A stretch of 64,000 bases of DNA from the NCBI GenBank assembly GCA_047967505.1, contig CM106538.1; one strand, given 5' to 3'. Positions 11,261 to 64,000 of the stretch are shown here, in pieces; position 1 is the stretch's first letter; the number at the start of each line of letters is the position of its first letter. Made by a program: the position numbers and the translations under genes. The stretch is from Dipteris shenzhenensis. Its lineage: Eukaryota. The notes beneath the pieces are model-generated. The model had not been told where the DNA came from and did no database searches. It saw only the letters and a list, made by a program, of their open reading frames with translations.

Positions 11261-13370
11261 TGTTGGAATATGAAGCCACAATGAGTCTAAAATGAGTGTT
11301 CTAGGTGGTCTAGGTGTGGTTTTATAGTCTAGTGAGTCCTAGACATGCCTCGTGTCATATTGGGAAATATCCCATAGACATTGTGACTTTCTAGAGTCTA
11401 GTGGCACACTATTTAGTGTTGTACTTGTCTATTGTCTAACACATCAGTCAACATCAAGCTTTATATCATGTGAGTATTTTGGTTATCATTGCCTAGCACT
11501 TGTTCTTTCATTTTCTTTGCATTTTGCCTTTCCATATTTCCATTCCGTTCCTAGTTAGCTTGGCATTCTCCTACCTCCACGTCTCTTCATATGGCATCAG
11601 AGCCAGCTTTCCTCAAGGAATGAGGAGGCCTTGAAGCCCATCCCAGACCTATGGAGAGGCTAGCTCCTTCCACTCTAGTTCCACTCTCCTCCTCTCCTTC
11701 CTTGAGCACTCCCTCTTCTTCCTTTGCCTCTCCACCTTGAGCTCCCTTCCAATCCCAAGCCTCACCAACATGAAGCTACCCATCTACGACATGATGCTGA
11801 GATTCTACCACGACTTGGAGCTGCCACATATCCCGTGCTTTCCCCGCCATTGCTCAGCCAACTGAGCCGCGGCCTCTTCTGCACTCCATCGACCTGCAAA
11901 CAGGCCGTACAGCCCGTCGCAAGCAGCCCGTATAGTCCGTATGGACTGTACTGACTGTTTTCGTGCAGTCCCATGCCATACCCACCTGCCCGTACACCTG
12001 CTGCTTACGCTCCCTCGTCATTTTCCCTCGGGACTGCCACCAACGGTAGCTGCTTCTGCACTCGAAATCCACGCCATCTCAGCTCTCTTTTGCTCGCCAC
12101 AAGGTCACCTTCCCTGCTCACTTGCTGCCCACGCTGCTTCTGCTGCCCACACAGCTCTAGCTCCTGCTGCCCACGCTGCACTTGCTGTCCACGCTGCCTA
12201 CGAATTCCGCCTATCTCCAGCTCATCTTTGTCCTGCAACAGGCCCTCTTCTCTGCCCGTCACTTGCTCCACATTCTGTCAACAACAAGTGAAGCTGCTCT
12301 GAGCTTGATGTGAGCTCCAAACACTTCCCGACTTCTCCGATTACCACCCCGATTGTCCTTGGTGCCTGAGCTCCACTTTTGACCAACTCTCTGAGTGCTC
12401 GTGATGCCTCCGGCCTCTACTTCGACATCGGTGACTCTCACTTAGCCATTTTGAGAGTCACTATGTGAGTGCTTCATTTAGCTACCCCATTGACTTCACC
12501 GACACATCTTTTGGGTCATTCCTGCCTAGCGCTTCATCGACTCGCAGGGATGTGCACACATGTGCATAAGCTACTTGGGGGACATCTCTTACTTCTAAGA
12601 GATCTATTTTTATTATTCCTACAGCTTGATGTATTTGGGGTCCTCTGCCCTAGGTAGTCCCCCTAAAATGATATGTATTGAGTGTTTGGTTTTCATTGAG
12701 TTAATAAAGGTTCTCAACCTTGGATAGTCCTCCTCAAATGATGTGTTATTTCCTTTATGAGTGTGTGGCTTCCTACCAAGTCCTATTATGAAGCTAGGGG
12801 GGAATGTATTGTGGGAGCCTTTCTATTGGCTTTGATGGGTCTCTCTATCAGGCCTGGCCGAGTTCCAGGATGTTGGTGCATTTCCCAAGACCGATTTGTT
12901 GGATCAAGTAGCCATGCTTCATTTGAGCCTCTGAGCTACTTGGGGTGCACAGAGCAGTAGACTCCATCATTGTCATGTTTTGTTCTTGGTGCCATTCCAG
13001 TAGTCTCTCACCTTGCCTTCATGGGGGGGTGTTGGAATATGAAGCCAAAGTGAGTCTAAAATGAGTGTTCTAGGTGGTCTAGGTGTGATTTTGTAGTCTA
13101 GTGAGTCCTAGACATGCCACGTGTCATATTGGGAGATATCCCATAGACATCGTGACTTTCTAGAGTCTAGTGGCACACGATATAGTGTTGTACTTGTCTA
13201 TTGTCTAATACATCAGTCAACATCAAGCTTTATATCATTTGAGTATTTTGGTTATCATTGCTTAGCACTTGTTCTTTCATTTTCTTTCCATTTTTCCTTT
13301 CCATTATGCTTTCCATATTTCCATTCCGTTCCTAGCTAGCTTGGCATTCTCTTACCTCCACATCTCTTTA
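11261..13370 (+). mobile_element. Non-autonomous, non-coding LTR element (TRIM/LARD-like, 2.1 kb)
   Basis: Direct LTRs 11261-11589 and 13030-13370; PBS TGGCATCAGAGC 11592-11603; G-run PPT 13023-13029; exact TSD GAGAC (11256-11260, 13371-13375); no gag or pol. Confidence 0.92.
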
Positions 13371-15922
13371 GAGACTAGTGAAGATTAGCAAGGACGAGGA
13401 TTTGAAATTTTACGAGACTTTTGGCAACGCTACTCTCAATGAGGGAACGAGTGTAGCAACTCTTGCAGAACAAGTTTTGTGGAGGTTCGTGGATGCAATA
13501 GCCGCAATGTATCTGTCACAACGTAATTGCAGGCATAGGTAACTTCAAAAAGGCTCGTGGGAAGGTAAGTTTGTCGTTTTAGTTTGCAGGAGAGTCGGCT
13601 GCTACTGCTAGATCAGGCGATGGAGGAGAAGGTGTTATCGTTGAAGCTGCAGGGATTTGGGGAGAAGCTGTGTGCTGTGCAGCTTGCCGCTCATAACTAC
13701 GGATCCACAGACTTGCACGAAGCTTATGGCTACTGCCATACATAGATTCACGAGGAGCTTCAAACACTGTAGATTTGACAGGAAGCTTTAATTGCCATAG
13801 CCAGAACTTCGAAGAACAATTTCGCAAGGGTGCGGCCTGTACCTATAAAGAGGCAAAGCATAGAGACAACAAGACAAAGGCAAAATCCAAACAACTCAAC
13901 GCCAAGGAAAAAATGTGTCCCAAATTGCTTACGAAGAAAAGCAAGTCGCGGTAGTTGATTCGTTGTCGACGCACAGAGTAATGGAAGAAATAACCACAGA
14001 TGCCACGCAATCAAAGGATCCTTAAACCTTTGAAAAAAACCACCTCATCACTGCTCTTTATACTCCTCTCCAATCCAAAAGTCTTAAAGCCTCTTCTTTT
14101 CCCCCTCTTGCTAAAGGGTATCTTCCAAGGTACCTCAAATCATTTTAGCCTTTCCAAATTTAAAGACGAGGATCGAAGATCAAGTCGAGAAGTTTGAGAA
14201 TGGGATTGAAGAATTATAACTTGTGTGGCACAATGAGAGCGGGTTTGAATACAAAAGACAAATCCAAGGCCTCGAACAAATATCAAGGAAGTGGGCATTG
14301 CATATTTCTCTCTATTATAAAGCTTTTTGCTTTAGATCTTCTAGAAAAATTTTACATTTGAAATGGCAACTCCAGAAAAGGATGAAATGGTTAGGGAGAG
14401 CGAGGAAAGGGTTGACACTAGTGGAGAGGTCCACCTCTCGACTTAGAGAAACCTCTAACATTCTTAAGAACTTGAAACCGCCAATTTTCAATGGGGAAGA
14501 AAAGGAGCATAATAAAGATGTGATTAATACATTGATAAGGAACAAAAAGTAAAGACAACCATGAATTATGTACTTCACCACGTCAGATAGCTGTGACTTC
14601 ATAGGGATCAGCTGCAATCTGGGCTCGTAGATGATGAGCTTATGAACCAGGTTCCAGAGAAGGTGTCTTTGTATTAGGCACTGAGACAAAACCCCCACAA
14701 AAACTGACTGAACATGGATCACACAGACTTAGAGAGAGCCAAAAGACTACACAGCCCGAAACAGATAAACTTAGAACTGAACTGAACTTTCCCCCAAAAC
14801 TCACAAAACAGTCAGCCTCAAAATACTATAAACCCACAGACCACACTCCTAAGCTTCCATCAAGGACAACAGCTTATAACTCCCACAAAGCTGCAACAGC
14901 GCCACCTCCTCTCCTTCTCTATCACTACCCAGCTCGCTTAGGACAACCATCATCGATGAAAGGTCACGTTCCATTGCGCCTTAGCCTGCAATTCCTTGGT
15001 CCCTCTATCTCTTTGCATACGGAGTTCATGGAGTCGCTGTTGCCCAAAGTCCTTCAGCTAGCAGAAAACGATACACAGCTATGCCTCAAGCTGTCCTAAT
15101 CCATGAATCATCACCAACCATGCACCAGCCCGATGGAAGACACTTCCAGCAATAGCCCTGCTATCTTCATTTCTCACGGAGAGCTTAGCTCACATGTATA
15201 GCGTCACCTGCACAGCCAGGTAGCTTCCTCAATCAGAAAGAAAAAGAGCCTTTCCATATGATCTCAGCTAGACCACGCATTCTCTGCATCAGCTCACGTG
15301 CAAACAACGACTGCCCTGCCTGTGTGGTAGCCATGCTCAGCCAACTACAAACAGCTCGCTATTTCTGGACATCTCCAGCGCCAAGGTCTTCTCAGCGCAC
15401 ACAAGCTCACAAATTCCCTTACGTGAAGACAATCAACAGTGTCCGCAATAGCCCTTCTCTCCCATTCGATCTAAATTCACCACGTAGCTGTAGCAACAGA
15501 GCACCCCGAGTTTATCCTTTCCAAACTTGGAGTCCCTTTGTGCCAAGCATGCAGTCGGAAATCCCCATCCCATCATGTACATAGGCCTTTTTTTGATGGG
15601 CGCTTAGTCTCTCGCTTTCATCTACGAGACTCCTAGTTACGTGCATCGCTTCCTCTGTTCTTCAAACACCCTTGCTCTGAAGTATGGTACAACCACATTG
15701 CATTTCATCATTTTCCATGAAGTCCCTGCAAAACATACTTTATTGTCTCAAAAAACTATACATTAGTCCATCATGCTTGTGAAAGAAAATCCACAAATGC
15801 CAAAAGCCCACACCTACCCTAGATGTGTACAACTATGTGCCTACCTACAGCTATATACAGTGCTCAAAAACTTGATACAGGTTTTGTCCTATCATTTTGC
15901 CCATCCCCAAGTTTGCAGACAT

Positions 15923-18900
15923 TCATGTCTTGCAGATAGGGGTATATAAGATTTGCATTTCTTCAGAGATATCCTCATCCATGAGGTCTTTCGGCTTGTC
16001 TGGTTTCATCACAGTAGGTCCACAACTGCCTATACTCATGATCCTATGAAAGTATTTCTTTAGTCTGAAGCCATTGACTCTATTCTTATGCTGCTGACCA
16101 TCCAAATCCTCAAGTTGATATGAGCCATTTTTGAATTTCTTCGTCACACGAAAAGGTCCATCCCATTTGGTCACAAATTTCTTCTTGAAGGTAGAATCCA
16201 AACTAGTGTTGTATCTCAAAACTAGATCACCCTCCTCGATTTTCTGATCCCTGAAATTCTTGTTTGCTCTCTTCTGATTCTCCTCTTGAATTAAAGCATA
16301 ATGTTCCACCGCCTTTTGTCTGTCTAGTTGTGCTTCCTGCAAATCCAATAACCGGTTCTGGAGAGTAGAATTTGAATCCTCGGTTATCTTCATTAACATC
16401 TGTAATGCAGGAATTTCTACTTCCAAGGGTAATAGAGCTTCTTTCCCGTAAACAAGATGAAATGGTGACAATTGGGTGCCTTCTTTTACTGCAACTCCGT
16501 GAGCCCATAAAGCCCAGTGCAAAGCAAGGTCTCACTCCTTCTCATGTGTTCTCATGATCTTTCCCATGATATTAGTACGCACACCATTAAATTTTTCATT
16601 CATCCCATTACATTGAGGATAATAGGGACTTGCATATCTGTGTTTAATCTTCAGCTTTCCACATAATAAATCCATTAGTTCACTCCTGAAGCCTGGACCT
16701 CTATCAGAAAGCAACTCCAGTGGCACACCAAATCTATAGCAGATATCCTCATACACAAATTTTCGCATTGACAGCCCATACTGCTCGTGCTTCAGCCCAT
16801 CTCGTCAAATAATTTATAGCTGTCAGCACATACTAATTTCCCTGGGTTGTCGTGGGTAGAGGACCGATGGCATCTATTCCCCATTTCTCAAAAATATTAT
16901 AAGCAAGCATGATATTTCTGAGTTCTGGATGTAAGATTCTCTTACTCATCTGCTGATACTGTAGGCATGACCTGCACCAATGTCTTATGTCTCTCTGGAG
17001 GGATGGCCACACATACCCTTCTGTAAGTATTTTCCTTAGCATGATTTTGAAAGCAAAATGTCCTCCACATACTCCCTCATGATTAGCTTGTAAAATATGA
17101 AAAACTTCCTCATGCCAGGGAATTCTTATGAGCGCCAGATCAGCCTCTTTCATGTAAAGAACATCATCTATCAGACAATAAGAAGTACAGCTTTTAATAA
17201 ATCTGTATTTTCTTTGTTTTGGAACTTCTTCAGGCACTTTACCAGTTAACAGGAAGCTTTCCTCACAAGCCAATGTCTCCCTTCCTTTGTATAAGGGCTC
17301 CTGCACTCCTACTGCATCAACATAAGCTGCTGTAATTTCCTGCGCAGCATCATGTGCATTTACATTCTTACCCCTTTCAATATGCTGGAGTGTCCAGGCA
17401 TCCAATTGATTTAACAGTTTCTTCACCGCGCTTATCCATCTCTTCAAATGAACATGCTTAACCTTCCACACACCTAAAATTTGCTTCATAACCAACAGAG
17501 CATCTCCCTTAATCATGAGTCTCTTAATACCCAGACTAATGCATACTTTCACACCTTCGAAGAGGGCTGCATATTCAGCTTCATTATTACTGCTGGCTTC
17601 GAGCTGAATTCCCATTTTCCGAATCTCCTTTCCTCCAGGATCATAAATGACAATTCCTCCTGTACTTTTATTTAAACTTTTTTTGTTAGATCCATCAAAG
17701 TGTAAAACAAATGCATCCTCTAGTACTTTTTCTTCATTCATGTCAGTGTTCTTCTCCACATCTTCAACTAAAATAGGTCCTTCCTTATAGGTGAGGAGAT
17801 CAGCCAAGGAAGCTCTGGTAGAGTTCTCAACCAAGAAGGTAAAAGAGTACTCCTATAACTCTACTATCCATTTAATCATGCTCCTGGAGATGTCTGTACT
17901 ATTCAACATATGAGGTAGTAGTGAACATGAGGTGAGAACCACAAAAGGCCTTGACAATAGATAAGACCAAAATCTCCTACATGCATACAAGAGGCTAGCC
18001 AGGACCAATTCAGCTGCTGAATACTTCCTCTCTACTTCACTCTTCACCCTGCTGGCATAATAGATTGGCCTCATATATTTGGAACCCCCTTCCTTTGTAT
18101 AAGGGCTCCTGCACTCCTACTGCATCAACATAAGCTGCTGTAATTTCCTGCGCAGCATCATGTGCATTTACATTCTTACCCCTTTCAATATGCTGGAGTG
18201 TCCAGGCATCCAATTGATTTAACAGTTTCTTCACCGCGCTTATCCATCTCTTCAAATGAACATGCTTAACCTTCCACACACCTAAAATTTGCTTCATAAC
18301 CAACAGAGCATCTCCCTTAATCATGAGTCTCTTAATACCCAGACTAATGCATACTTTCACACCTTCGAAGAGGGCTGCATATTCAGCTTCATTATTACTG
18401 CTGGCTTCGAGCTGAATTCCCATTTTCCGAATCTCCTTTCCTCCAGGATCATAAATGACAATTCCTCCTGTACTTTTATTTAAACTTTTTTTGTTAGATC
18501 CATCAAAGTGTAAAACAAATGCATCCTCTAGTACTTTTTCTTCATTCATGTCAGTGTTCTTCTCCACATCTTCAACTAAAATAGGTCCTTCCTTATAGGT
18601 GAGGAGATCAGCCAAGGAAGCTCTGGTAGAGTTCTCAACCAAGAAGGTAAAAGAGTACTCCTATAACTCTACTATCCATTTAATCATGCTCCTGGAGATG
18701 TCTGTACTATTCAACATATGAGGTAGTAGTGAACATGAGGTGAGAACCACAAAAGGCCTTGACAATAGATAAGACCAAAATCTCCTACATGCATACAAGA
18801 GGCTAGCCAGGACCAATTCAGCTGCTGAATACTTCCTCTCTACTTCACTCTTCACCCTGCTGGCATAATAGATTGGCCTCATATATTTGGAACCCTCTCC
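15923..18900 (-). pseudogene. pol remnant: RT-linked RNase H, second (RNase HI-like) RNase H, integrase
   Basis: PIYYASR...ELVLASL; LHFDGS...NNEAEY...IKGDALL...KNVNAH; HEGVCGGH, WGIDAIGP, LSDRG, GMNEKFN, KWDGPF. Confidence 0.9.
17279..18894. repeat. 808-bp tandem duplication (17279-18086 and 18087-18894)
   Basis: Identical ORF translations offset by 808 bp; CCC microhomology at the junction. Confidence 0.92.
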
Positions 18901-20522
18901 CTGCTGCAAAAGAGACAGCCTTTCCATATGATCTCAGCTAGACCACGCATTCTTTGCATCAGCTCACGTGCAAACGACGATCGTCCTGCTTGTGTGGTAG
19001 CCATGCTCAGCCAACTACAAACAGCTCGCTATTTATGGAGACCTCTAGCACCAAGGTCTTCTCAGTGCACACAAGCTCACAAATTCCCTTACGTGAAGAC
19101 AATCAACAGTGTCCGCAATAGCCCTTCTCTCCCATTCGATCTAAATTCACCACGTAGCTGTAGCAACGGAGCACCCCGAGATTATCCTTTCCAAACTTGG
19201 AGTCCCTTTGTGCCAAGCATGCAGTTGGAAATCCCCATCCCATCATGTACATAGGCGTTTTTTTGATGAGCACTTGGTCTCTCGCTTTCATCTACGAGAC
19301 TCCTAGTTACGTGCTTCGCTTCCTCTTTTCTTCAGAAATTCTAGATTTCTCTACACGTGATCGATCGCAATCCATACACGCTCTACATTCCTTGCTACGT
19401 AGCCACCTTTGCATGAGCAGGATGCCTTCCCAATCAGTCCAGCCACCTCAGCCTAATTTGCCACCTCATCAGTGACATTTTACCACTCCCATTTAGAAAA
19501 TGCAAATATCTCCCCAAGGCACATTAAATGCACATTTTGGACCTTTAGTCACACAATTCCCACACACATTAGCATGCACATTAAAGCTTGCATGCACCCC
19601 CGTACACACACATGAAAAGCCCCTTGACATAGGCACCAAAACATATCAAATTTCCGTAGCATGCAAGTGCACATTGACTTAGAAAAATAAAATAAAGAAA
19701 CCCTTCATGACTTGATTTACATGACCCCAAAAACATTTCACTTGACCACACATTGGACACCCTTGCTCTGGAAGTCTGGTACAACCACATTGCATTTCAT
19801 CATTTCCCATGAAGTCCCTGCAAAACATACTTTATTGTCTCAAAAAATTATACATTAGTCCATCATGCTTGTGAAAGAAAATCCACAAATGCCAAAAGCC
19901 CACAGCTACCCTAGATGTGTACAACTATGTGCCTACCTGCAACTATATACAGTGCTCAAAAACTTGATACATGTTTTGTCCTATCAACGTTCTTGCAAAA
20001 ATGGCAAGACGTCCATCGACTCAGGAATACCCCTCCTGAAAATCAAGTCATGGAGTAAGTCTTTCCCTTGGAAACAAGGCCTATAAATGAATTAGAAAGG
20101 GCATGGGAGACTGACTCCTATGGAAAAATCACTGACGACTCCTTATCAAGTTGAGAGGTCTACCTCTTGACTTAGAGAAACCTTTAACATTCTTAAGGAC
20201 TAGAAACCGCCAATTTTCAATAGGGAAGCAAAGGAGCGTAATAAAGATGCGATTAATACGTTCTTGCAAAAATGGCAATACTTCCATCGACTCAGGAATA
20301 CCCCTCTTGAAATCAAGTCGTGGAGCAAGTCTTTCCCTTGGAAACAAGGCCTATAAATGGTGGATGAGCCTCAGAGAAAATGATAGAATTCCTAGGTATT
20401 GGGGTTGAGTTTGAACAAGTCTTCTTAAAAGATTTTTTATCAAAAAATTAATTAGAAGGAGCATTGGAGGCTTGGGACAATTGCACTATGGGTAAAAATA
20501 CTCTAGTCTAGTATATGGCGAA

Positions 20523-41919: not shown

Positions 41920-43027
41920 GCACGCACGAAATCCCTTCCCTCAATCTGTCTAGTTATACTCTCTCTCTAAACGTAATCTCTTTCTAGGTGTCTCTCTCGC
42001 CCTGGTGACAAGCTTCCTTCTCCCTTCTCTCACCTCGGGTGCCTTTCCTTCTCTCTCCCCCAAGCAACAACTGATAAGTCTCCACCGGTTTAAAATCCCT
42101 TCTCTCTGCACCGCTGCAAACTCCCTTCTCTCTCCTCGGTGACATTTGCCTTGTCTCTCTGTAGGGTGTAAACTCCTGTCTCTCTCCTCCGTTCCATTTG
42201 CCTTCTCTCTCCATGGGTTTGCCCTCTCCTCAGTGACAATTGGCTCCTCTCTCAAATAGGCACAAGGGGTGCTTGGTCACCTTCATGCCGGGAGGAGAGA
42301 GTGTCACATGTCATGTTGGCTTGGCGTTTCTCTGGGTGAACATGGAGGTTTGGTGTCCTGTAGCTTTGGTGGCATGAACAAGGAGGTTCGGTCTCCTCTA
42401 GCTTTGGTGAAGTGAACAAGGAGGTTCGATGTCCTCTAGCTTTGGTGGCATGAACAAGGAGGCTCAATACCCTAAAAGGACCAAGGCTTCGTCTTCTCCA
42501 TTCGGGTCCATCTGTTGCTACACATGATCCATTTGCTACACCGGGCCTAGTATAACTATGATTTCGGATGAGGACAAGGATCATCATGCAGGGGCTTTTC
42601 ACAGCGCATCTAGCAACTTCAATTCTGATCATGGAGTGTCAGACTATTCACTCTCTCCTGCTATACAGCAAGCGGCATCTCGGGAGGCATCCAATGGTCG
42701 TAGCAGCGATAAGCGTGCCTTGGATCATCCCTCCAAGCTTCGGGTGGTCTTCAAGACACTTCTCGATCCATCTCTCCATCTTTCATCCGTGCTATCTATA
42801 GGGAAGATTGAGGCGCTATCCCTCATGGAGTTTGACACCATTGATTTTCCTCCAGTGGTGGATGCTCTGTTATGCACAACATTCTTCCGTAGCTATTGTT
42901 GGAATATGAAGCCAAAGTGAGTCTAAAATGAGTGTTCTAGATGGTCTAGGTGTGGTTTTATAGTCTAGTGAGTCCTAGTCATGCCACGTGTCATATTGGG
43001 AGATATCACATAGACATTGACTTTCTA

Positions 43028-43490
43028 TGTTACGCTCTAGTCGAGGTAGCATGACCTCGGAAGAATCAGTCGACATTTCCCTTTAAAGGATCTATCTCTG
43101 TAATATATGTGTATGCGCTTTATGTAAATGATCGGGAGGGATTTAATGTCAAGGTCCTAGGTGAGGGCTGATAGCACCAGACTAGGTAGATCTAAGGCCA
43201 AGGGCCTAGTGCAATGATTGTGCCTAGGGGCAAAGGAATTAATGCATCCCAAGAGAGGGGTGGAATGTTACATTAGTAAGGCCCTATATGGATGACATGT
43301 GGCATCTAGATCTATCTAGGGAATTGGGGCTTGTTGAGGCTAGAGAGAGAAGAGAAGAAAATGATTCACGTTGAATTTGTAACGTAGATCTCTGTCTGCT
43401 TGTCAGCCTCAGCGAGATATGGCTGGGTGGAGATTCGTGGTGCTGCTCCCGTGATCTGCAGTAGAATCTAGAAGAGGAAGTTGTTTGACA
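43028..43490 (+). repeat. Left LTR (463 bp, normal orientation)
   Basis: TGTTACGCTC...GTTTGACA, followed by AT and the PBS. Confidence 0.95.
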
Positions 43491-43492
43491 AT

Positions 43493-43504
43493 TGGTATCA
43501 GAGC
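43493..43504 (+). promoter_or_regulatory. Primer-binding site (initiator Met tRNA)
   Basis: TGGTATCAGAGC two bases after the LTR-terminal CA. Confidence 0.92.
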
Positions 43505-44706
43505 CTTGTGGAGAGAACAAGGGACAAGTGACGAAGGAAGGTTCGGAGCACAAAGGTGACGTTATCACCTGTTCGTGACGTGCGAGGGACGTGTGGATCG
43601 TTGGCGGTGACGAAGGCTGTACGTGACGGGACCAGGTGGACGGGCATCTTCGGTTGATGTTCTGCTGCGACGACTGGCGTAGGCGACGCACTGATCGCAA
43701 CGAGGCTCCGCAACGAAGTGTTGACGCAATCCGTGTTGGATGGCGCTCCCGTAAGGTGGTTCGACGAATAGGGTGGCTGATGAAGGTTTCTGGAGCTTGG
43801 TCTGGAGCTTCTGAATTGTGGCGGACAGCGGGTCTGGAGCCTGGATCGAACGGCTGGTAATCAGCGATGTCCACGAATTAGGGAACGAAGGACTGGTGGC
43901 GATCCTACAGCGACAACGAAATTAGTAGAGAAATTGTTTGACAATGGGGGTCCCGTAAGGCAGCGACGACAGCGGGGAAATCAACCTTACGTGACGGGCA
44001 GACTGCAACGATGCAGCAGACGGTAGCGTGGAGCGCATGATAGGCAAGGAACGACGATTGGTCCTTCGTGTGATCGACGATAGGCCTAGAGCGGTGCTGG
44101 AACGGATAGCAGTAATTTGGGAGCAAGGAGATCATTTGGCACGTAAGATGTGACTTGGAACACAGGGGTGGCGCAGAGCAGGCTGGCTAACCTGTGGTTT
44201 GCTGATTTGGCACACATGTGCTCTGAGGTCTCCAGCTCCGAGCATCCTGCTAGTAACCAGTGACTGAGGCTACGATCCAGTGACGGGCGCAGAGGCGCAG
44301 GACTTGACCAGGGAGCTTTCTTTGATCTCCCTTAGCTTTGTGTTGTTTTTTTTCTTTTTGATTTAGTTGGGTGATGCGCTACTTCCATAGATAGGATAGC
44401 GTGAATGAGCAGCATGCATGAGGTTTCAATGTGGTAGCAGGGACAGATTATGCCTGTGTGTTTCAGTCGGAGTCAGATTGCAGGAATTTCCCTAGTATAG
44501 GGAAAAGCGCCATCTGTGATATATACCTGTATTAAATGCTTGATCAGTGTGAATGTGGGATTGCAGGGATTCCCTAGTATAGGGAATTGTGTCAGATTGT
44601 TAGTACACCGAACTGTGTCAGCTTGTAATACATTTTTCCAGTGGTGTTAAAAAAAAACAAAAAACAAAAAAACAAAAAAACAGAATAAAACAAAACAAAA
44701 CACCCA

Positions 44707-47700
44707 TTGAACGGAATGGAAGCAGAAGAAGGGGCTTCCAGGAGGGACCCTGGTGAATCAGGAGTCCGGCTGACCCAGCAGGGATCGCGCCCAGTAGCTC
44801 ATACTTTAGCTGGCAGGATTGCATTGCTCGAAGATGCCTTGCAACAGTTGTTAGCGCAGCAATTACAGGCCAATGCAGGGCAGTTCGAGCTTAGGAGAGC
44901 GATACATAGTATGTCTGTCAGACCTTCTCGAGAGGAGAAGGGAAAGGCTCCAATGGAACTGGAGTCTAGTGTCCATATGGTCGAGCCTAGGAAGGCTAAA
45001 GTGCCAAATATTGCCAATTACAGACTGGAAAAATATTCTGGTCGGATGAACGACCGTAGCTCCGATGTCATTGAGACCTGGTTACACAAATGGGACGAGG
45101 CGTTTGCCATTTGTGAAATCAGAAATGACATCAAGAAGATCCGCGAGGCCACCCACATGTTTAGTGAGGCAGCGGATCGGTGGTGGATTAAACAACAAAA
45201 AGATGGAATAGCATCCACTACCTGGGAGGGGTTTAAAAGAGAGTTCAGGAAACACTTCTTACCTCTTGACGAAGCATCCCGAGCTTGGGATCAATATAGG
45301 AACCTTCGTCAGAGAAATTTATCAGTGGCAGAATACACTGATAAGTTTCGAGAGAGTGTAATGAAGGTTGACGAACCCCTGCCTCAATCAATCCAAGTGA
45401 AAGATTTCATATTTGGATTGAATGATCGAATAAAAATGGAAGTTCGGGCTAAGTACGCGAACACGTTAGATGATGCAATAGCTATAGCCCTGAACTATGA
45501 GGATGCCAAGGGCAGCAAGCCAAGTGGGTTTGCACAGGTCGGAACCCAGTATGGGTATCCGAAGAAATCTGGGTTTAAGAAGAAGTGGACTAGTAGAGGA
45601 AGTGGTTCGCAGCCGAGTGGTCAAGCCAAGCAAGCGAGACTGGCTGAAACTCCTAAACCAAGTACCACCATTGGAGTGAAGACATTGGAGTGAAGAGGAA
45701 AGTAACCCCAATGGCAGCCCGGGCTTGGTCTAAGTCTCCCTTGAACCCAGAACAAAGGGAAAAAGCGAGGAGAGAAGGCTTATGTTTTGGTTGCCTTCAA
45801 CCTCATCAGTGGAAGGAATGTCCACGTAACAAAGATTGTCGGAGGGCTGAGATGGTGATCTCAGAGTGCGACGTGGAGATGCAGGGAAGTCCCAGAGCGG
45901 AAGAGATGCAGATTCAGCTAGCGGGATCTTCTCAGAGGTTAGTACCCTGTTTGTTATGTGTGTCTGTTGCTAAGTTAGTGACGAGTGCACCTGATAACAT
46001 CCTATCTAAGCCCGTAGCAACGGGGTATATGGCCTTTAATGATACGGAGTTAATTAAAATGAAAGGGCAAGTGGCCAATCATGATGTCATTGTGTTGTTT
46101 GACTCGGCGTCAACTCACAATGTGATTAACTCCAAGCTCGTGAAGAGGCTGAAACTAAAAACAAGTCCATCTAACTATGCGTATACAGTCAGGATGGCAG
46201 ATGGAAGTTCAACTGAAGTATGGGACCAAAGGGTTACCCATTTGGAGCTTCAGATTCAGGACTATGCTGAGAAGCTTGATTTTGAAATGACCAAGCTTGC
46301 TCATGCAGATATAGCCCTGGGTATGGCGTGGCATTCTAGAAAGAATCCAGCCATTGATTGGAAAAAACACGTATATCAATTCAAGATGAATGATGTGCTT
46401 TATGTCTTGAAAGGTGAAAAAGATATACCTCAAGGACCGTTGGTTTCCGTGATGGAAATCCGAAAAGCTCAAGTGGAGTTTTTATTCCTTTGCACCGCAT
46501 CGGTAGAGCCGGTTGATGATCCTTCGGCTAGCACTGATGTTACGCAAAGTGGTGAGATGGCCAAGCTGGCTAATCTTATAACAGAGGAGTTCTCTGAATG
46601 TTTTAGGGATGAACTACCTTATGGGTTACCTCCAGAGCGGAAAGTTCAACATAAGATTGAACTGATCCCGGGGGCAGAGCCTGTAAATAGACCTCCCTAT
46701 AGAATGAGTTTTACTGAAGAGGCGGAGGTGCATAGACAACTGGAAGAATACCTCAAGTTGGGGCAGATTCAACCAAGTTTTTCGCCTTTTGCTTCGCCAG
46801 TGATATTAAAGAAGAAAAAGGATGATACGTTTCGCCTATGTATAGATTACAGAGCATTGAATAATATCACTGTTAAGCACAGGTATCCGATGGCTCGGAT
46901 TGATGATTTGCTAGATGCATTACATGGAGCCGTGATTTTCAGTAAGATAGATCTTAAGTGTGGCTACCATCAGATCCGGATTAGAGCCGAGGATGTGCAT
47001 AAAACCGCTTTCAGAAGCAGGTTTGGTCATTATGAGTTTTTGGTAATGCCCTTCGGACTTACCTCCAGCAACATTCGTCATGCTTATGAACGATTTACTA
47101 CGTCCGTATATCGGAAAGTTCGTAGTATATTTTATTGACGATATCCTGATATTCAGTGAAAGTATTACTGAGCATCGTGAACACTTAAGAGTAGTGTTCA
47201 GTACTTTGAGAAAAGCCAGTCTTTATGTAAATAAAAAGAAAACTATACTGTGTATGGTTAGGCTTGAATATTTAGGATTCATAATTACTCCACAGGGGGT
47301 AGAAATGGATCCGAAGAAAGTGGCTGCGATACTAACTTGGCCAATCCCTCAGAGTCTGACCGCGTGTTGCAATCATTCTTGGGATTTGTCTAGTTTTATA
47401 GAAGGCATATCAAAGGATATTCCGGAATAGTATCGCCATTGACTGATCTGACCTCAGATAAAGTACCTTTTATATGGGGACAGAATCAACAAGAAAGTTT
47501 TAACACCATAAAACAAGCTGTGGTCACAGGACTGGTGTTAAAAATAGTTGATCCCCAGAAACCGTTGTTCCTAGAAACCGATGCAAGTGGCATTGCAGTA
47601 GGAGCAGTTCTCCTTCAAGAGGGAAGGCCAGTAGCCTTTGAAAGCAAGAAGCTTTCTCCCTCTCAAAGGAATTGGCCAACTCATGAATTAGAGTTGTATG

Positions 47701-49440
47701 CTGTTATCCATGCTTTGAAAACATGGAGGCATTACTTGTATGGTTCAGAGTTTTATGTGGATGTGGATCATGATACTTTGAAACATTTTTGTAAACAGCC
47801 TGACTTGAGGGGCCGCCAAGCTAGGTGGGCAGAGCTCATGCAGGAGTTTAATTTAACGATTCGGCACCGAAGAGGAAAAGACAATAAGGTTGCTGATGCG
47901 TTGTCTCGCATTATGCACGACCTGAGTTTCACGGTATTAGAGAGTGCTCTAATGACCGAGATAAGAGAAACTCAAAAAGTGGACGAGTTTGTCCAGAGCT
48001 TATGGCCTAAAGCTCATGTTTTAAAACCCGGGGAAAATGAAAAGGATGACCTGGCATCCAGAAAAGGCCAAACTTATGCAAGATATACCATAAGGGATGG
48101 TATGCTAGTTAGAAATGGCAAGGTTGTAGTACCTAGTCAGAATGATCTCAGGCAGAGAGTCATTCGACAATGCCATGATAGCCCGTGTGCGGGACATCCA
48201 GGAGTCGAGAAGACATATGATCTCGTGAAGCGAGATTTCTTTTGGCCAAAGATGAAAAAGCATATTCATGAATATGTGACACGGTGTTTCTCGTGTCAGG
48301 TAAGCAAGGCCGAGTGGGTGAAGCCACCCGGACTTTTACAACCCTTGGAAATACCACTAAGTAAGTGGGAGAGCATTTCCATGGACTTTATAGTAGGGCT
48401 GCCTACGACGCAAGGAGGGTATGATTCTATCCTTGTGGTGGTTGATCGTCTAACCAAGATGGCTCACTTCATTCCGACTAGAGAGTCTGTTAGTGCCCCG
48501 CAAGTGGCGGATTTGTTTATTAGACATATATTTCGCCTGCATGGATTGCCTAGATCCATAGTGTCAGACCGAGACGTCAGGTTTACCGGTCATTTTTGAA
48601 CGGCGGTATTTAAGACACTGAGGACTGAGTTGGGAACGAGTAGTGGGGATCATCCTGAGACGGATGGTCAGACGGAGAGAGTCAACCAGACTTTAGAGGA
48701 TATGTTGAGGGCATATGTGTCATTGAGGCAACATACGTGGGACAAGTGGTTGCCATTGCTGGAGTTTGCCTACAATGATAGAAAACATTCATCTACTGGG
48801 TTCAGTCTGTTTGAGCTGAACTATGGTTATAGACCAGCCAATCCAACTATAGTTGGAGTACCTCAGAAAGTGCCTAGTGCCGCGAACTTTGTAGTTCAGA
48901 AGCGGGAGATGCTAGCACTTGCGAGAGCTAATATCCGCCAGGCTATGGATAGAGCCAAGGTGTATGCGGATGAAAACCGGTCTATAAGAGTATTTAAGGA
49001 AGGAGAAAAAGTTTTTCTCAGAGTTCCTTCGCACTCGAAGTCGCTGACTTCAGGAGAGTGTGCTAAGTTATCACCTCGATACTGTGGGCCGTGGTTAATT
49101 CTAAAGAGAATAGGAAGTGTACCCTATAAATTAGAATTGCCACAGGGGTGTAAGGTGCACCCGGTTTTTCATGTTTCGCGCTTAAAGAAATTTTTACATA
49201 CTGGTGACTCACTAATCGAAGGTGTGGTTTTGTTTCAGGAGATAGAGGATATTGCAAGGCGCAAACCAACGGCGCAAACCAACAAGAATCCTGGACCGAG
49301 GAACAATGCAAATACGAAATCGGAAGATACCACGGTGTTGGTTGCATGGCATGGTCAGCCTCTATCCGAAGCTACCTGGGAATCCGTATATCAGTTGCGG
49401 AGAGTGTTCCCAGATTTTATCATCGAGGACGCTGATGTTA
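44707..49440 (+). pseudogene. gag-pol polyprotein, disrupted by a few frameshifts and stops
   Basis: Gag 44707-45693; protease [21 protein letters not shown] and FIDD; RNase H ETDASG, THELELYA; integrase CHDSPCAGH, SMDFIVGLP, VSDRD, GQTERVN; chromodomain VLVAWHG...EATWE. Confidence 0.93.
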
Positions 49441-49442
49441 AT

Positions 49443-49905
49443 TGTCAAACAACTTCCTCTTCTAGATTCTAATGCAGATCACGGGAGCAGCACCACGAAT
49501 CTCCACCCAGCCATATCTCGCTGAGGCTGACAAGCAGACAGAGATCTACGTTACAAATTCAACGTGAATCATTTTCTTCTCTTCTCTCTCTAGCCTCAAC
49601 AAGCCCCAATTTCCTAGATAGATCTAGATGCCACATGTCATCCATATAGGGCCTTACTAATGTAACATTCCACCCCTCTCTTGGGATGCATTAATTCCTT
49701 TGCCCCTAGGCACAATCATTGCACTAGGCCCTTGGCCTTAGATCTACCTAGTCTGGTGCTATCAGCCCTCACCTAGGACCTTGACATTAAATCCCTCCCG
49801 ATCATTTACATAAAGCGCATACACATATATTACAGAGATAGATCCTTTAAAGGGAAATGTCGACTGATTCTTCCGAGGTCATGCTACCTCGACTAGAGCG
49901 TAACA
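49443..49905 (-). repeat. Right LTR (463 bp, inverted orientation)
   Basis: TGTCAAAC...GAGCGTAACA; about 2 mismatches by eye versus the reverse complement of the left LTR. Confidence 0.95.
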
Positions 49906-50772
49906 TTTTAGAGTCTAGTGGCGCACACTATAGTGTTGTACTCGTCTATTGTCTATCACATCAGTCAACATCAAGCTCTTTGGTATCATGTGAGTACTTG
50001 TCCATTGCTTTCATTTTCTTTCCATTTCATTTCCATTATGCTTGTTATCTTTCCTTTCCATTCCTAGTGTTAGCTTGCTTCTCTCCCTACCACTATGATC
50101 CTTCATGTGGTATCAGAGTCATGTTCCTGTCTTTCCCTTTCCTTCCAAGAGGTTGAGGTAAGGGAGGCCAATGAAGCTACTCTACCTCCTCCTCCTTGGA
50201 AGGCTGCCCTCTTCTCTCCTTTCTTGAGCTCTCTTCTCCATGCCATGATCTGCCACCTCTCTTGTCCTTCCTTCAGCTACATCTTTCTGTGACCAGTCGA
50301 CGATGTGATGCTTCTATTTGGATCTAGAAGTAGAATCACAGCTTTGTGTCTTCAGCAAAGTTGTAGAGAACCTTGAGTACTACAAATTTCGTTTTTACAT
50401 CATTGCAATCCAAGTTTTCTGTGAAAAGTTATAGTCCTTGGAAGAAGTGATGAAATTAGTTTTTGCGCGCGGATTTTGTTCTGGTGCTCAATGATTTGAC
50501 AGCCCAAGCATGATGCAGTCAGCTCAACGTGGAGCTTTTCATCCTCTTCATCGTTGATCTCTCCTCCAGCCCACCATTTGCTCCTTCTGCCCGACATTCT
50601 CTTGGAGCTGCTACCTGCAAGTTGGTGCCCGTATTCTGGCCGTCATTCTCTTGGAGCTGCTGTCCTTCTACTTCTGTCTACCATGAAGAAGTTCTAGACT
50701 TTTTCCAGCTCATGAAGAACTTATTAAGATGATCTTTCCATAGTTACACTTGCATTTCTACTCTTTTTCAGC

Positions 50773-51560
50773 CATGGAGTCTTCCAAATCAACTACCATT
50801 TTGTTCGAGAAGTTTAATGGTAAGAATTTCCCTACATGGCAAACAAAGATGCGTCTTGTACTTATGAAAGATGGAGTGTGGAATGTGGTGCATGGCAAGG
50901 AGAAAAAGCCACAATCAGATGAAAAGAAAATTGCACACTAGGAGAATCTGAATGACAAAGCTCTTTCTCTCATTGGTTTGGGGTTGGGTGATGACGTTAT
51001 TCATCATTTTGATTTTGACTCCACTGCTCACGACTTCTTGGCTAAGTTTGAAGAATTGTTCGGCAACAAAATCATCAATTCAAAGGTATTCCTCAGACAG
51101 GAATTCTTCAAGCTGCAAATGAAGCATGAAGACTCTCTTCTTGCTCACTTGAATCATATGGAATCCTTTGTCGCTCAGCTTGCTAGTCTGAAGGCCCCTG
51201 TAGGGGAAGATGATCAAGTTGATGTGCTCCTCTCAAGCATTGAGAAAAATTCTAAGTAGTGGGAGATCATATCAGCATTGCGTGTGACACAAATGGGTTA
51301 TCATGATATGGTGGCTATGCTCATTGATCATGAAAGATGGTATGCAAACACTGTACTGTACTGCAAGGACTAAGGCAAAGGCAAATTCAAGCCTTTCAAA
51401 TGCAATCAGTGTGGGAAGCTTGGTCACACCAAGGATTGCTGCTTCCAGAAGCTTGCCAAGCAACAACACAAGGATCATGTCAACTTGGTTAGGGCTGCAA
51501 CAAGTGAAGACGAAGAAGAAGATGATGCTTCGACACCGACTCATGCTCTTACTGCGGACA
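50773..51560 (+). pseudogene. Copia-type gag of the TR-GAG-like element
   Basis: EKFNGKNFPTWQTKMRLVLMKDGVW; FFKLQMKHEDSLLAHL; zinc knuckle CNQCGKLGHTKDCC at ~51401; in-frame stops. Confidence 0.85.
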
Positions 51561-53939
51561 TCAGAGATCTCTCTCTCTTTTCAGAGGTCTATGTACCTGA
51601 TGATCGAGACTTTTGTTTCTGATCTATTTTTATTATTGCTACAACTTGATGTATTTTGGGGTCCTCTACCCTGGGTCGTCCCTTTAAAATGATATGTATT
51701 GACTGTTTTGTTTTCATTGAGTCTAAAGGTCCTCTACCTTGGATAGTCCTCCTAAAAAGATGTATTGGTTTTCATATTTTGGTGTGTGGCTCCCTAACAT
51801 GTCCTGTTATGAAGGCAAGGGGGGATGTACTGTGGGAGCCATATGTATTGGCTTTGATAGGTCTCGTTATCAGGCCTGGCCGAGTTTCAGGATGTTGGTG
51901 TATTCCTAGACCTATGAGCTGATCATGTAGCCATGCTATAACGTGAGCCTCTGAGCGTGTTGAGTCTCAAGCCATGAGAATGCTTGGATCAACCTCTGAA
52001 CACGCTTAGACTTTAGCCTCTAAGTTACATAGGGTGCACAGTTTGATGACCGTCATTGTCATGTTCTGTTCTTGGTTCCATTCTAGTAGTCTCTCACCTT
52101 GCCTTCATGGGGGGGTGTTGGAATATGAAGCCAAAGTGAGTCTAAAATGAGTGTTCTAGGTGTGGTTTTATAGTCTAGTGAGTCCTAGATATGCCACGTG
52201 TCATATTGGGAGATATCCCATACACATTGTGACTTTCTAGAGTCTAGTGGCACACTATATAGTGTTGTACTTGTCTATTGTCTATCACATCAGTCAACAT
52301 CAAGCTCTTTGGTATCATGTGAGTACTTGTCCATTGCTTTCATTTTCTTTCCATTTCATTTCCATTATGCTTGTTATCTTTCCTTTCCATTCCTAGTGTT
52401 AGCTTTCTTCTCTCCCTACCACTATGATCCTTCAGTTATGGCATGTCCTACAAATACCTTTGAGTTTATGGGCTCCTGCCACATTCTAGCCCCAACTCCG
52501 GTGTCCACCTATTTTTGTCTTTCCACCCTCGCCATCCAGCTTGCCTATGGTTAGTCCGAGATCTTGACATCCTTTCGCGCCGGCTATAAGTGGCATAAAA
52601 GGGGAGAAGATTTCCGTAAGGGTATGGAAGGAAAGAAAAGAGAAGAGGTATTGGCCAAGTATTTCTTTGCACGCTTGTATTTTGTGCCTGGCCATTTCTT
52701 TATCATGCAGAGTATTTGCCTTGCATTAAACATTTTTCTCACCGTGACTCCTTTTGACTTCGTCTCTCTCTTTCATTCCACCTTTCGTGCCAATGTGCGA
52801 AAGTGTCATAGGCGAACACATACATGCACATGTGGGCCACATCTTACCCCGCTCCTCTATCAGTGGTGGCAGGCTACCTCGCCTCCTATTGTGGTAGCAC
52901 GGCTCCCATCTCACCACCCAGCCCCTCCTGTTACTGGGGCTGCATCTTTGTCTCAACCCTCTTCTACATCCCCTACCTGTGCCGTTGTTGCCTCTCCAAC
53001 ATCCGTGCCTCTTCCTCTCACTGCTACATCCACCCCACCACCATCCCCCCTTCATGCTTCTCCTCGTGTGGCTTCCACTTCTTCATGCGCTTCGGGGACC
53101 CAGTTGGTGGTCTTATCTACACAGGTGGCGAGTCAATCTCTTTCTCTAGATGCTTCTTCAGATGCTTGGGCATCTTCTTCTATGACTCCATATTTTCATC
53201 TTACTGTGGTATCCTTAGTAGTCAGCATGCTCCCTGATTTGATTATTGCTACTGTTCACGAGGGAGAGGATTCTCTGGAGCCACTTGATCCGCCATTACA
53301 AGAGGGACAGGTTGCTGCAGATTCTTCCGATGTTTCACAAGTTCTGACATAAGGTGCACCACAGGCATTGGCTACTTCTCTAGGTCTTGGATTCACAATT
53401 CCACCATAGGTGGCTCATTCATTTGATCTCAAGCTTAGAGTGGGCATGGGCGCTCCTAGTAGTGATGTTGCTGTTAATCGGGCTCAAGCACTTCTGATTT
53501 CCTCAAAGATACAAGCCCCACACTTTTCGCTCCGGCTGCCCTCAATTCCCACGTCTCCTGGACTTTAGATGTCACATGTACCAGTGCCGCTACCCAGGTT
53601 GATACTCTTCTAGGCTATATCTTTGATGGTGATTCTTTGCCTGAGGCTGTGGAGTGTCCTCCCGTGCATGAGAATGATATGTTGTCCATTTATCTCACTT
53701 TATCATCGGGGCTATACAGTTGGCTTGGCTCACTTCTCCGGGCAGGTTTTGCTTCGATTCACAGCAAGCTTTTGTACACAGTTGTCTTGGTTCAATTCTC
53801 AACAAAAGCATTTTGTATATCGATGACCTGGTTCATTTTTTTGGACAAGTTTTTGCTGGATTCTCAGCAAGGTTTGTAAGTAGTTGGTTTGATTCAGTTT
53901 TTGTCAGGGGTTTTTCTATATAGTAGCCTTTTGATTCGA

Positions 53940-63300: not shown

Positions 63301-63400
63301 CATGGATTTTTCTCATGAAGGAAAAATCTGAGGTGTTGTATTGGTTTCAGGGGTTCAAAGCTAAGGTTGAGAACCAAACCAATTCTAGAATTGGAACACT
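60342..63400 (+). mobile_element. 5' part of a same-family Ty1/copia element (LTR 60342-60525, PBS 60528-60539, gag-PR-INT from 61528)
   Basis: KLDGPNYALW, WYIDSGATKHMT, LWHARFGH...CERC, VHSDVCGP, FIDDFSR; truncated at ~63400. Confidence 0.92.
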
Positions 63401-64000
63401 CAACTGCCTATCAATCTCTTCGAGGGTAGAGGGCGGAACCCTTCGAAGAGTGTTCCTGAAGCTCCCCCAAGCTTTTAGGATGGCAGTCATGAGAGGAGAG
63501 GCAGGAGATCTGAGAGAGGCGGAAGTAAAAATCCAGCGAGGACTGTCCACCCAATCATCTCCCAAGGTAGGTGTGCAAGCTTGAATGCGTCCAAAAAAGA
63601 AATCCTTCCAAGGTTGTTGCCTAGGCACGAGTCCCCTCACCACCACCTTACAGAGCAATGCCCTACACTGCAAGTCCGGGTCAATGATATTAAGGCCCCC
63701 TTCACATGTAGGGAGAATAATGGTCTCCAAGGCCACCCTCATTGCAACATCTGTCGTGCCATCAAGTCCACTCCATAAAAGATTCCTGAGTGGTCTAATG
63801 AGCTGAATGATGCAATCCCTAGACCGGCACCAGCAATAACACACAAACCAGGCGGTGGCCAAAAGAACCTGGTTCTACTACCACAACTCTAGATGCAAGG
63901 TCAAGTTTGGCTGAGCTCCAGAATAGGAGCTTTTTCCTTATACTTTCTAGTACTGGGGCAAACCGCTGTGCTGGAGAGATGCCCAATCCTACCTAGCATC
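63400..64000 (-). mobile_element. LINE ORF2 fragment running off the window
   Basis: LPTCEGGLNIIDPDLQCRALL...SPLMTAILKAW, colinear with 29900-30500. Confidence 0.88.

Follow-up and report, generated by a model that had tools for sequence, protein, structure and literature searches.

How does a long terminal repeat (LTR) retrotransposon with a DDE-type integrase come to lie in a chromosome between two LTRs that point in opposite directions? The question is raised by a Ty3/gypsy element at positions 43028-49905 of a 64-kb stretch of Dipteris shenzhenensis DNA (contig CM106538.1 of GenBank assembly GCA_047967505.1; hereafter "the window", meaning the whole stretch of 64,000 nt that was analysed, which contains no N). 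A first-pass annotation, made from the letters, had noted the inverted LTRs and offered two readings: integration of a cDNA with two U3 ends (U3, R and U5 being the unique 3', repeated and unique 5' portions of an LTR), or a propagating lineage of inverted-LTR elements. The results below indicate that the locus is most likely a rare replication accident and not a new kind of mobile element; in our judgement, it probably arose from one aberrant cDNA with two U3 termini that was integrated once, by integrase.

Results

An inverted LTR pair inside a single target-site duplication

An inverted-repeat search over 42000-51000 returned a sole inverted pair, with arms at 43027-43501 and 49432-49906 (475 nt, 99% complementary). 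The arms were then compared by blastn against the window and base by base. By blastn, 43028-43490 matches 49905-49443 over 463 nt at 99.57% identity and otherwise matches only itself, with no second inverted copy found in the 64-kb window. Base by base, the arms differ at 2 of 463 positions (43321/49612 and 43461/49472; 461 identical), so that the reverse complementarity, put at about two mismatches by eye in the first-pass annotation, has exactly two. Both outer ends read TGTTACGCTCTAG inward.

The element interrupts another LTR (TGTTGG...CTTCA, ~345 bp, followed by a site resembling a primer-binding site (PBS) at 50108-50119), of which the window holds three intact copies. By blastn, the left flank (42897-43027) aligns with 13030-13162, 11261-11393 and 52116-52239, and the sequence from 49906 onward, on the right, aligns with stretches that begin at 13158, 11389 and 52235; at each of the three intact copies, the two alignments overlap by exactly 5 bp. 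Uninterrupted at 11385, 13154 and 52231, the 20-mer GACTTTCTAGAGTCTAGTGG is split at the element into ...GACTTTCTA before the left LTR and TTTTAGAGTCTAGTGG after the right LTR; in a chance control of 100 shuffles, none gave any match, and the split cannot be chance. The result is a 5-bp target-site duplication (TSD), TTCTA on the left and TTTTA on the right, with one C/T difference. The exact interruption of the host LTR, its 5-bp duplication and the single integration event to which they point are thus borne out as first proposed, and two of the three intact sites were correctly placed (13154 and 52231); the third, given as ~11325, should read 11385.

The arm divergence of 2/463 (0.43%) would correspond to an insertion age of less than 0.2 million years at a plant substitution rate of 1.3e-8 per site per year, which may not be the rate of the host, and gene conversion between the inverted arms could make the apparent age too young. 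The split host LTR matches the copy at 52116-52434 at 88.7% in its left part and at 97% over 200 bp in its right part (blastn); arms that are 99.6% identical, against 97% over 200 bp for the host LTR, fit insertion of a younger element into an older one.

Other copies of the family have direct LTRs behind a polypurine tract

The family was compared through contigs (Logan) of the public sequencing runs X1, X2, X3 and X5, aligned at 85% likeness. Among 14 runs listed, 9 contain part of the stretch, none has half its words, and the best has 0.27 of the sampled words; the contigs, which are not reads of the source assembly, report on the family and are silent on whether the window's junctions exist elsewhere. 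In all four runs, contigs run along the interior as far as 49437 or 49438, from which they pass to 49907 on the other strand and thereby enter the LTR from its U3 start, in direct orientation; one X5 contig passes from 49437 back to 43174 in the left LTR. The loose end of an X1 contig behind 49437 reads CTTGAAGAGGGAAGGAA and then TGTTATGCTCTAG, a polypurine tract (PPT) abutting the LTR start, and behind 49907 an X1 loose end has the same PPT in reverse complement. The start of the left LTR is thus also found directly after a PPT in another copy of the family.

The canonical PPT-LTR junction has no match in the window with up to 2 mismatches allowed. In the canonical sequence, TGA follows directly after 49439 in the pol frame, and this stop codon and the PPT, together about 15-17 nt, are missing from the window copy; it has a PBS beside its 5' LTR and lacks the PPT beside its 3' LTR that another copy has. 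Since other copies have a direct LTR and a PPT, the family is an ordinary direct-LTR family, from which the window copy differs by loss of the stop codon and PPT and by a flipped LTR. On sequence grounds, we take the family to be an ordinary plant-type chromovirus of the Ty3/gypsy group and the window copy to be a malformed product.

These results bear directly on the hypothesis of a propagating inverted-LTR lineage, multiplied either by an unknown form of reverse transcription or as DNA, by integrase acting on identical termini. The TGTTA... termini fit the TGTNR pattern that, in the portion of PMC2836005 drawn on here, is common to gypsy LTRs and Ginger transposons; the element encloses an integrase gene, and the orientation of the family is seen through the contigs of four runs. 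However, the direct-LTR form appears behind a PPT in 4/4 runs, the window holds only one inverted copy, and that copy has an in-frame stop in its integrase, no PPT, no sense 3' R, no intact pol and no tyrosine recombinase. We consider this the least probable of the explanations weighed here.

The breakpoints coincide with replication termini

Both outer termini of the element are U3 termini joined to the target at CA, and the outer junction is exact, with ...GTAACA directly against the TSD. The inner end of the interior is equally well defined. The polyproteins P0022, P0025 and P0031 are colinear with the copy, with 38-44% identity over pol (tblastn); the alignment with P0022 extends as far as its residue 1461 (of 1463), at 49439, and that with P0025 as far as residue 1444 (of 1454), at 49442, so that pol reaches within 2-10 residues of the C-termini of its relatives and the interior therefore extends to the natural end of pol. 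The copy retains a complete internal region up to the last sense codon, and the inverted LTR with its AT(T) is joined flush there.

A rearrangement after integration would have had to produce the same boundaries, by replacing the PPT and 3' LTR with an inverted 5' LTR and AT(T) through a microhomology-guided template switch or through break-and-rejoin. TGT/ACA is common to both LTR ends, and CTGAT both precedes the PPT and recurs in the reverse-complemented PBS, so the microhomology for two switches exists; moreover, one arm could have been copied from the other at any time, and this would account for their 99.6% identity beside a heavily damaged pol. But two independent switch points are needed, one exactly at the CA/TSD boundary and one ~1 nt from the PPT edge, and no pre-existing inverted repeat was there as a driver. 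We judge such a rearrangement unlikely, if the foremost of the alternatives. Two simpler candidates were rejected outright: a plain in-place inversion of PPT plus LTR predicts a reverse-complemented PPT between arm and TSD, which is absent, and neither a nested insertion nor recombination between two elements restores one TSD pair.

The same exactness bears on an assembly artefact, in which a direct 3' LTR would have been flipped by the assembler. LTRs are repeats, and direct-LTR copies exist. Against this, the assembler would have had to invent two junctions, delete the PPT and add an AT(T) from the U5-PBS boundary, in a window without N and with the outer junction placed exactly against the TSD; we regard an artefact as very unlikely.

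The inner junction carries further information. It reads ...GCTGATG TTAAT TGTCAAAC..., where TGTC... is the reverse complement of the U5 end and, in reverse complement, the last 2-3 bases of TTAAT correspond to the AT(T) just downstream of the 5' LTR; the A preceding the inner-junction AT probably also comes from the AT+T of the 5' LTR. The reverse-complement match extends past the LTR at 8 of 11 bases, namely AT+T and then 5 of 8, the 3 mismatches all being transitions. The CTGAT within that match belongs to the canonical interior, which other copies share up to 49437.

The 8/11 match makes the right arm resemble a 5' LTR with the start of a PBS, as if two DNA copies had contributed: the U3 ends of two cDNAs co-integrated, or two opposite insertions at the same 5 bp, with a later deletion that would span from the PPT of the first copy to the PBS of the second. 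The large palindrome formed in this way would be unstable and prone to deletion. Yet both ends of the deletion must then fall within 1-17 nt of LTR boundaries, in copies of ~7 kb each, and 3 of the nt expected as PBS differ. We rate a two-copy origin as less probable again than an assembly artefact.

An integrated 3' LTR borders the TSD, and AT follows only a 5' LTR or the unintegrated, unprocessed end of a cDNA. We read the AT(T) at the inner end of the flipped LTR as such an unprocessed U5 end of cDNA. The retained AT also bears on autointegration, in which the cDNA ends would attack just upstream of the PPT and the resulting inversion circle would be reopened at its U3 ends and integrated. 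Inversion circles are abundant in plant virus-like particles for one element, according to the part of PMC7197481 used here. However, integrase joins the processed CA directly, so that the AT should vanish; the bases before the AT differ from the canonical pre-PPT sequence, unless a parent variant read ...GATGTTAAT upstream of the PPT; and a second opening of the circle, at internal U3 ends, adds a step with little support. Autointegration ranks lower still, and seems to us remote.

Each of the three breakpoints of the window copy is thus a natural replication terminus. One is the PPT primer's 5' edge, another the 5' end of the minus strand, and the last the CA of U3 after processing by integrase.

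A cDNA with two U3 ends would account for the locus

The observations converge on the first of the two readings originally offered, a two-U3-end cDNA from one event: the TSD is a clean 5 bp, both outer ends are U3 at CA, the PPT is lost exactly, and the U5 end appears unprocessed. According to this hypothesis, reverse transcription or end-joining would yield a linear cDNA with two U3 ends. HIV-1 RNase H leaves the terminal A of the tRNA primer on the minus strand. In the route that we prefer, the PPT-primed plus strand would run to the 5' end of the minus strand without copying a PBS, and would carry U5, AT and one base templated by a primer's terminal A of this kind. It would then jump onto the 3' end of an upstream plus strand that had halted at the PPT primer's 5' edge, and copy that strand back; once filled in, the molecule would read LTR-PBS-interior-(AAT)-inverted LTR, free of filler bases. 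A cDNA broken at the PPT gap and then end-joined would have an identical structure. In either case, both 3' ends would be ...GTAACA plus two bases, a normal substrate for 3' processing, and integrase, needing only a terminal ...CA at each 3' end, would process two identical U3 ends and insert them in one concerted step.

Related steps have precedents. Integrase reactions in vitro proceed on oligonucleotides of the U3 end or the U5 end alone, as set out in the portion of PMC11054761 drawn on here. Template switching gives abnormal, TSD-flanked LTR elements with near-identical outer LTRs in Triticeae, rice and maize, as described in the relevant part of Sabot and Schulman (2007; PMC1950507).

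Several points weigh against this hypothesis. Both junctions of the flipped LTR are known from the assembly alone, the best public run having 0.27 of the words. A single copy is seen, and "one-off" rests on absence of evidence together with inability to replicate. The last shared base is 49437, 49438 or 49439, depending on the parent variant, and contigs leave at both 49437 and 49438. The template jump is one of several routes to such a molecule, and the data fit end-joining of a broken cDNA equally well. An arm divergence of 0.4% would lead one to expect fewer disabling lesions than the copy has; either its RNA template carried defects from the start, or gene conversion gives the arms a false look of youth. 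Finally, U3/U3 integration in vivo by the copy's integrase is assumed.

The copy is dead and cannot undergo another round of reverse transcription: it is a dead end because it has no PPT, no sense 3' R and a pol broken by frameshifts and an in-frame stop. A transcript across both arms likely folds into a 463-bp hairpin, and the flipped LTR likely can drive antisense transcription; through hairpin or antisense RNA, therefore, the copy could feed small-RNA silencing of its own family.

Relation to known systems

The element shares with chromoviruses (Metaviridae of green plants) the order gag, protease, reverse transcriptase (RT), RNase H, integrase, followed by an SH3-like and chromo-like C-terminus, and it shares with them a PBS that we take to be of initiator-Met type, TG...CA LTRs and a 5-bp TSD. 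Its best relatives, from plants, ferns and charophytes, carry PF00385 and have at most 50% identity; no relative exceeded 50% among the best 120 of 6113 protein matches, which were those considered, and these matches do not place the element in any named sub-lineage. The window copy differs in its inverted 3' LTR, absent PPT and broken pol, the other copies of its family being canonical.

Among abnormal products of replication, the closest in kind are the complex template-switch insertions described by Sabot and Schulman (2007; PMC1950507), which, in the part of that paper considered, are likewise abnormal cDNAs of one round, inserted by integrase, flanked by TSDs and with outer LTRs that are nearly identical. 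They contain two internal regions and three LTRs, all direct, whereas here there are two LTRs, one of them flipped; the word "inverted" occurs nowhere in PMC1950507. Autointegration inversion circles of retroviruses, Ty1 and plant elements are, in the relevant part of PMC7197481, also cDNA with mutually inverted LTRs; they are circular suicide products formed through a processed CA, whereas the present copy is chromosomal, has a host TSD and keeps an unprocessed AT.

DIRS elements are retroelements with inverted terminal repeats too, but use a tyrosine recombinase, as far as the sources drawn on describe them, whereas the window copy has a DDE-type integrase and a 5-bp TSD. We examined 31 open reading frames (ORFs) of at least 60 aa on both strands, 5 with domains and 26 further ones; none of the 31 encodes a tyrosine recombinase, as had been noted at the outset, and the 26 match no family above threshold, with two sub-threshold chance matches only. 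DIRS elements are not known to make a target-site duplication, and have an internal complementary region. For such a region, the repeat finder gave one inverted pair only, and no dedicated search was made. Because no tyrosine recombinase was found and a DDE-type integrase and a TSD are present, the window copy is not a DIRS element.

Ginger DNA transposons likewise have an integrase-like gene between terminal inverted repeats (TIRs), TGTNR ends and short TSDs (PMC2836005, in the part used), a pattern that TGTTA at both ends and a 5-bp TSD fit. In the same part of that paper, Ginger elements form families, have no RT or RNase H, and have TIRs of 40-270 bp and mostly 4-bp TSDs, in contrast to the window copy, which is single and has a full retrotransposon interior with RVT_1 and RT_RNaseH. 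The paper raises the possibility that Ginger TIRs came from two opposite LTRs around an integrase gene, in a chain of events that it there calls unclear. Mu killer and Ac killer of maize are, in the sources as drawn on, rearranged transposons with inverted duplicated parts whose hairpin RNA can silence a family; they are of DNA-transposon origin and their silencing is demonstrated, whereas for the present copy silencing is inferred from the 463-bp inverted arms.

Searches for similar cases gave little. A 19-base anchor just before the junction gave 20 loci in a metagenome scan, of which 0 had further likeness to 42800-50200 (blastn, E 1e-5); the 20 loci were rejected as relatives, being chance matches. 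A 24-base anchor of LTR end plus PBS had no match in scans of viral_contigs and of genome_contigs, as expected for non-eukaryotic collections. Exact-phrase matching in the open-access literature found no LTR element that combines an integrase, inverted LTRs and a TSD, all inverted-LTR matches being DIRS, which is weak evidence that the case is absent from print.

We conclude that the locus is a rare structural variant, a single dead copy of an ordinary direct-LTR family and no new system; the first-pass suggestion of a new system finds no support.

Implications

If the locus is real, it offers natural evidence that a retroelement integrase inserts a molecule with two identical LTR termini, and that reverse transcription can flip a whole LTR at natural breaks, namely the PPT edge and the minus-strand 5' end; both points are otherwise inferred mainly from test-tube work. 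One such event can set an integrase gene between long inverted repeats with a TSD, which is the starting material proposed for Ginger in the part of PMC2836005 considered. That the inverted layout is a first step to, or a member of, a DNA lineage moved by a gypsy-type integrase on two U3 termini strikes us as no less remote than autointegration; were it true, there would be a one-step natural route from LTR retrotransposon to Ginger-like TIR element. A weaker form, in which the copy is a source of hairpin or antisense RNA that silences its own family, is more likely than a DNA-moved lineage, a 463-bp inverted pair around a retrotransposon being a plausible trigger of small-RNA silencing. For annotation, the locus is a caution, since LTR finders that accept direct repeats only will miss or mis-annotate inverted-LTR copies.

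Features of the element and its leader

The features are collected in Table 1.

Table 1. Coordinates of the inverted-LTR element and of the host LTR around it
Feature	Position	Strand	Evidence
Left part of host LTR (5' LTR of a small older LTR element); left TSD copy TTCTA at 43023-43027	42897..43027	+	blastn, alignment
Left LTR, canonical orientation, U3 start TGTTAC ... U5 end GACA, 463 bp	43028..43490	+	repeat search, blastn, base comparison
AT spacer (43491-43492) and primer-binding site TGGTATCAGAGCC	43491..43505	+	
Long 5' untranslated leader; A-rich tract 44649-44702; extra U5-end 12-mer 43934-43945	43506..44715	+	
gag (Retrotrans_gag, Ty3_capsid); first ATG 44716, stop 45691	44716..45693	+	
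pol: protease, RT, RNase H, integrase (H2C2 zinc finger, core, SH3_Tf2-1), weak chromodomain	45657..49439	+	
Inner junction TTAAT, in place of other copies' stop codon and polypurine tract	49438..49442	+	
Right LTR, inverted: U5 end inward, U3 terminus outward; 461/463 identical to left	49443..49905	-	repeat search, blastn, base comparison
Right TSD copy TTTTA at 49906-49910, rest of host LTR, host PBS-like site 50108-50119	49906..50119	+	

In 44689-49472, the Pfam order is Retrotrans_gag/Ty3_capsid, aspartyl protease, RVT_1, RT_RNaseH, Integrase_H2C2, rve, SH3_Tf2-1 and Chromo, spread over five plus-strand stop-to-stop ORFs. Integrase_H2C2 scores 80.7 bits; rve scores 23.3 bits, below its Pfam cut-off of 32.6, and Chromo (PF00385) 17.1 bits, below its cut-off of 25.1, the closest relatives (47-50% identity) carrying PF00385. 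The main pol frame has 8 stops within 47136-47391, an out-of-frame stretch between two frameshifts (around 47100-47394), and a further in-frame TGA at 48597-48599, in the integrase part. Compared with one contig in each of the four runs, the window is 2 bases longer at 47364, and compared with contigs of all four it is missing a C after 49329. Of the full set from gag to chromodomain claimed at first, the order therefore stands and the intactness does not, the pol frame being broken and rve and Chromo falling under their cut-offs.

Near the chromodomain, at 49258-49283, lies a perfect 13-bp tandem duplication that X1 and X2 each lack in one contig, and X3 and X5 have contigs there without the 13-base omission. 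The duplication and the missing C after 49329 together preserve the window's frame outside that stretch.

TGGTATCAGAGC lies at 43493-43504, 2 nt past the terminal CA of the left LTR; TGGTATCAGAGC, and the TGGTATCAGAGCC of Table 1, are putatively complementary to initiator tRNA-Met. The leader that follows is 1.2 kb long and ends in a 52-nt A-rich tract just upstream of the gag ATG. Within it, 43541-44281 has no contig from the four runs at 85% likeness, in contrast to the LTR and gag-pol; the leader may have been captured, or may be peculiar to the copy's sub-lineage. A 12-mer made of U5 end plus spacer, TTGTTTGACAAT, has a third exact copy in the leader, 453 bp downstream of the real one and before GGGGG instead of a PBS (chance expectation, 0.02 matches in the window), and this third copy may be left over from a previous duplication or template switch.

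The host element and its surroundings

The host is a small LTR element at 42897-52444, with LTRs of ~345 bp, the PBS-like site noted above and an interior of ~2 kb. A sibling of ~2.1 kb at 11261-13368 has LTRs that are 91% identical and carries TGGCATCAGAGC at 11592; judged by their sequences, host and sibling look like a non-autonomous family resembling terminal-repeat retrotransposons in miniature or large retrotransposon derivatives (TRIM/LARD-like). Contigs of X2 and X3 that skip from 43016/43019 to 49909 were set aside as empty sites, since they are uninterrupted host LTRs and maybe paralogues, and were not counted.

Just upstream of the host LTR, at 42337-42462, lies a 38-bp tandem repeat (3.3 copies, 86% matches). 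Farther off, an 816-bp tandem repeat (17279-18094 and 18087-18902, 99.8%) is flanked by 418-bp direct repeats (15247-15664 and 18917-19334, 95%), and 15247-19334 is possibly another LTR element with an internal duplication. The 12-base PBS motif has 8 matches in the window with at most 1 mismatch, against 0.35 expected, and several gypsy-like pol fragments of 65-75% mutual identity occur around 5000-36400 and 63400-64000; LTR elements are densely nested in the window.

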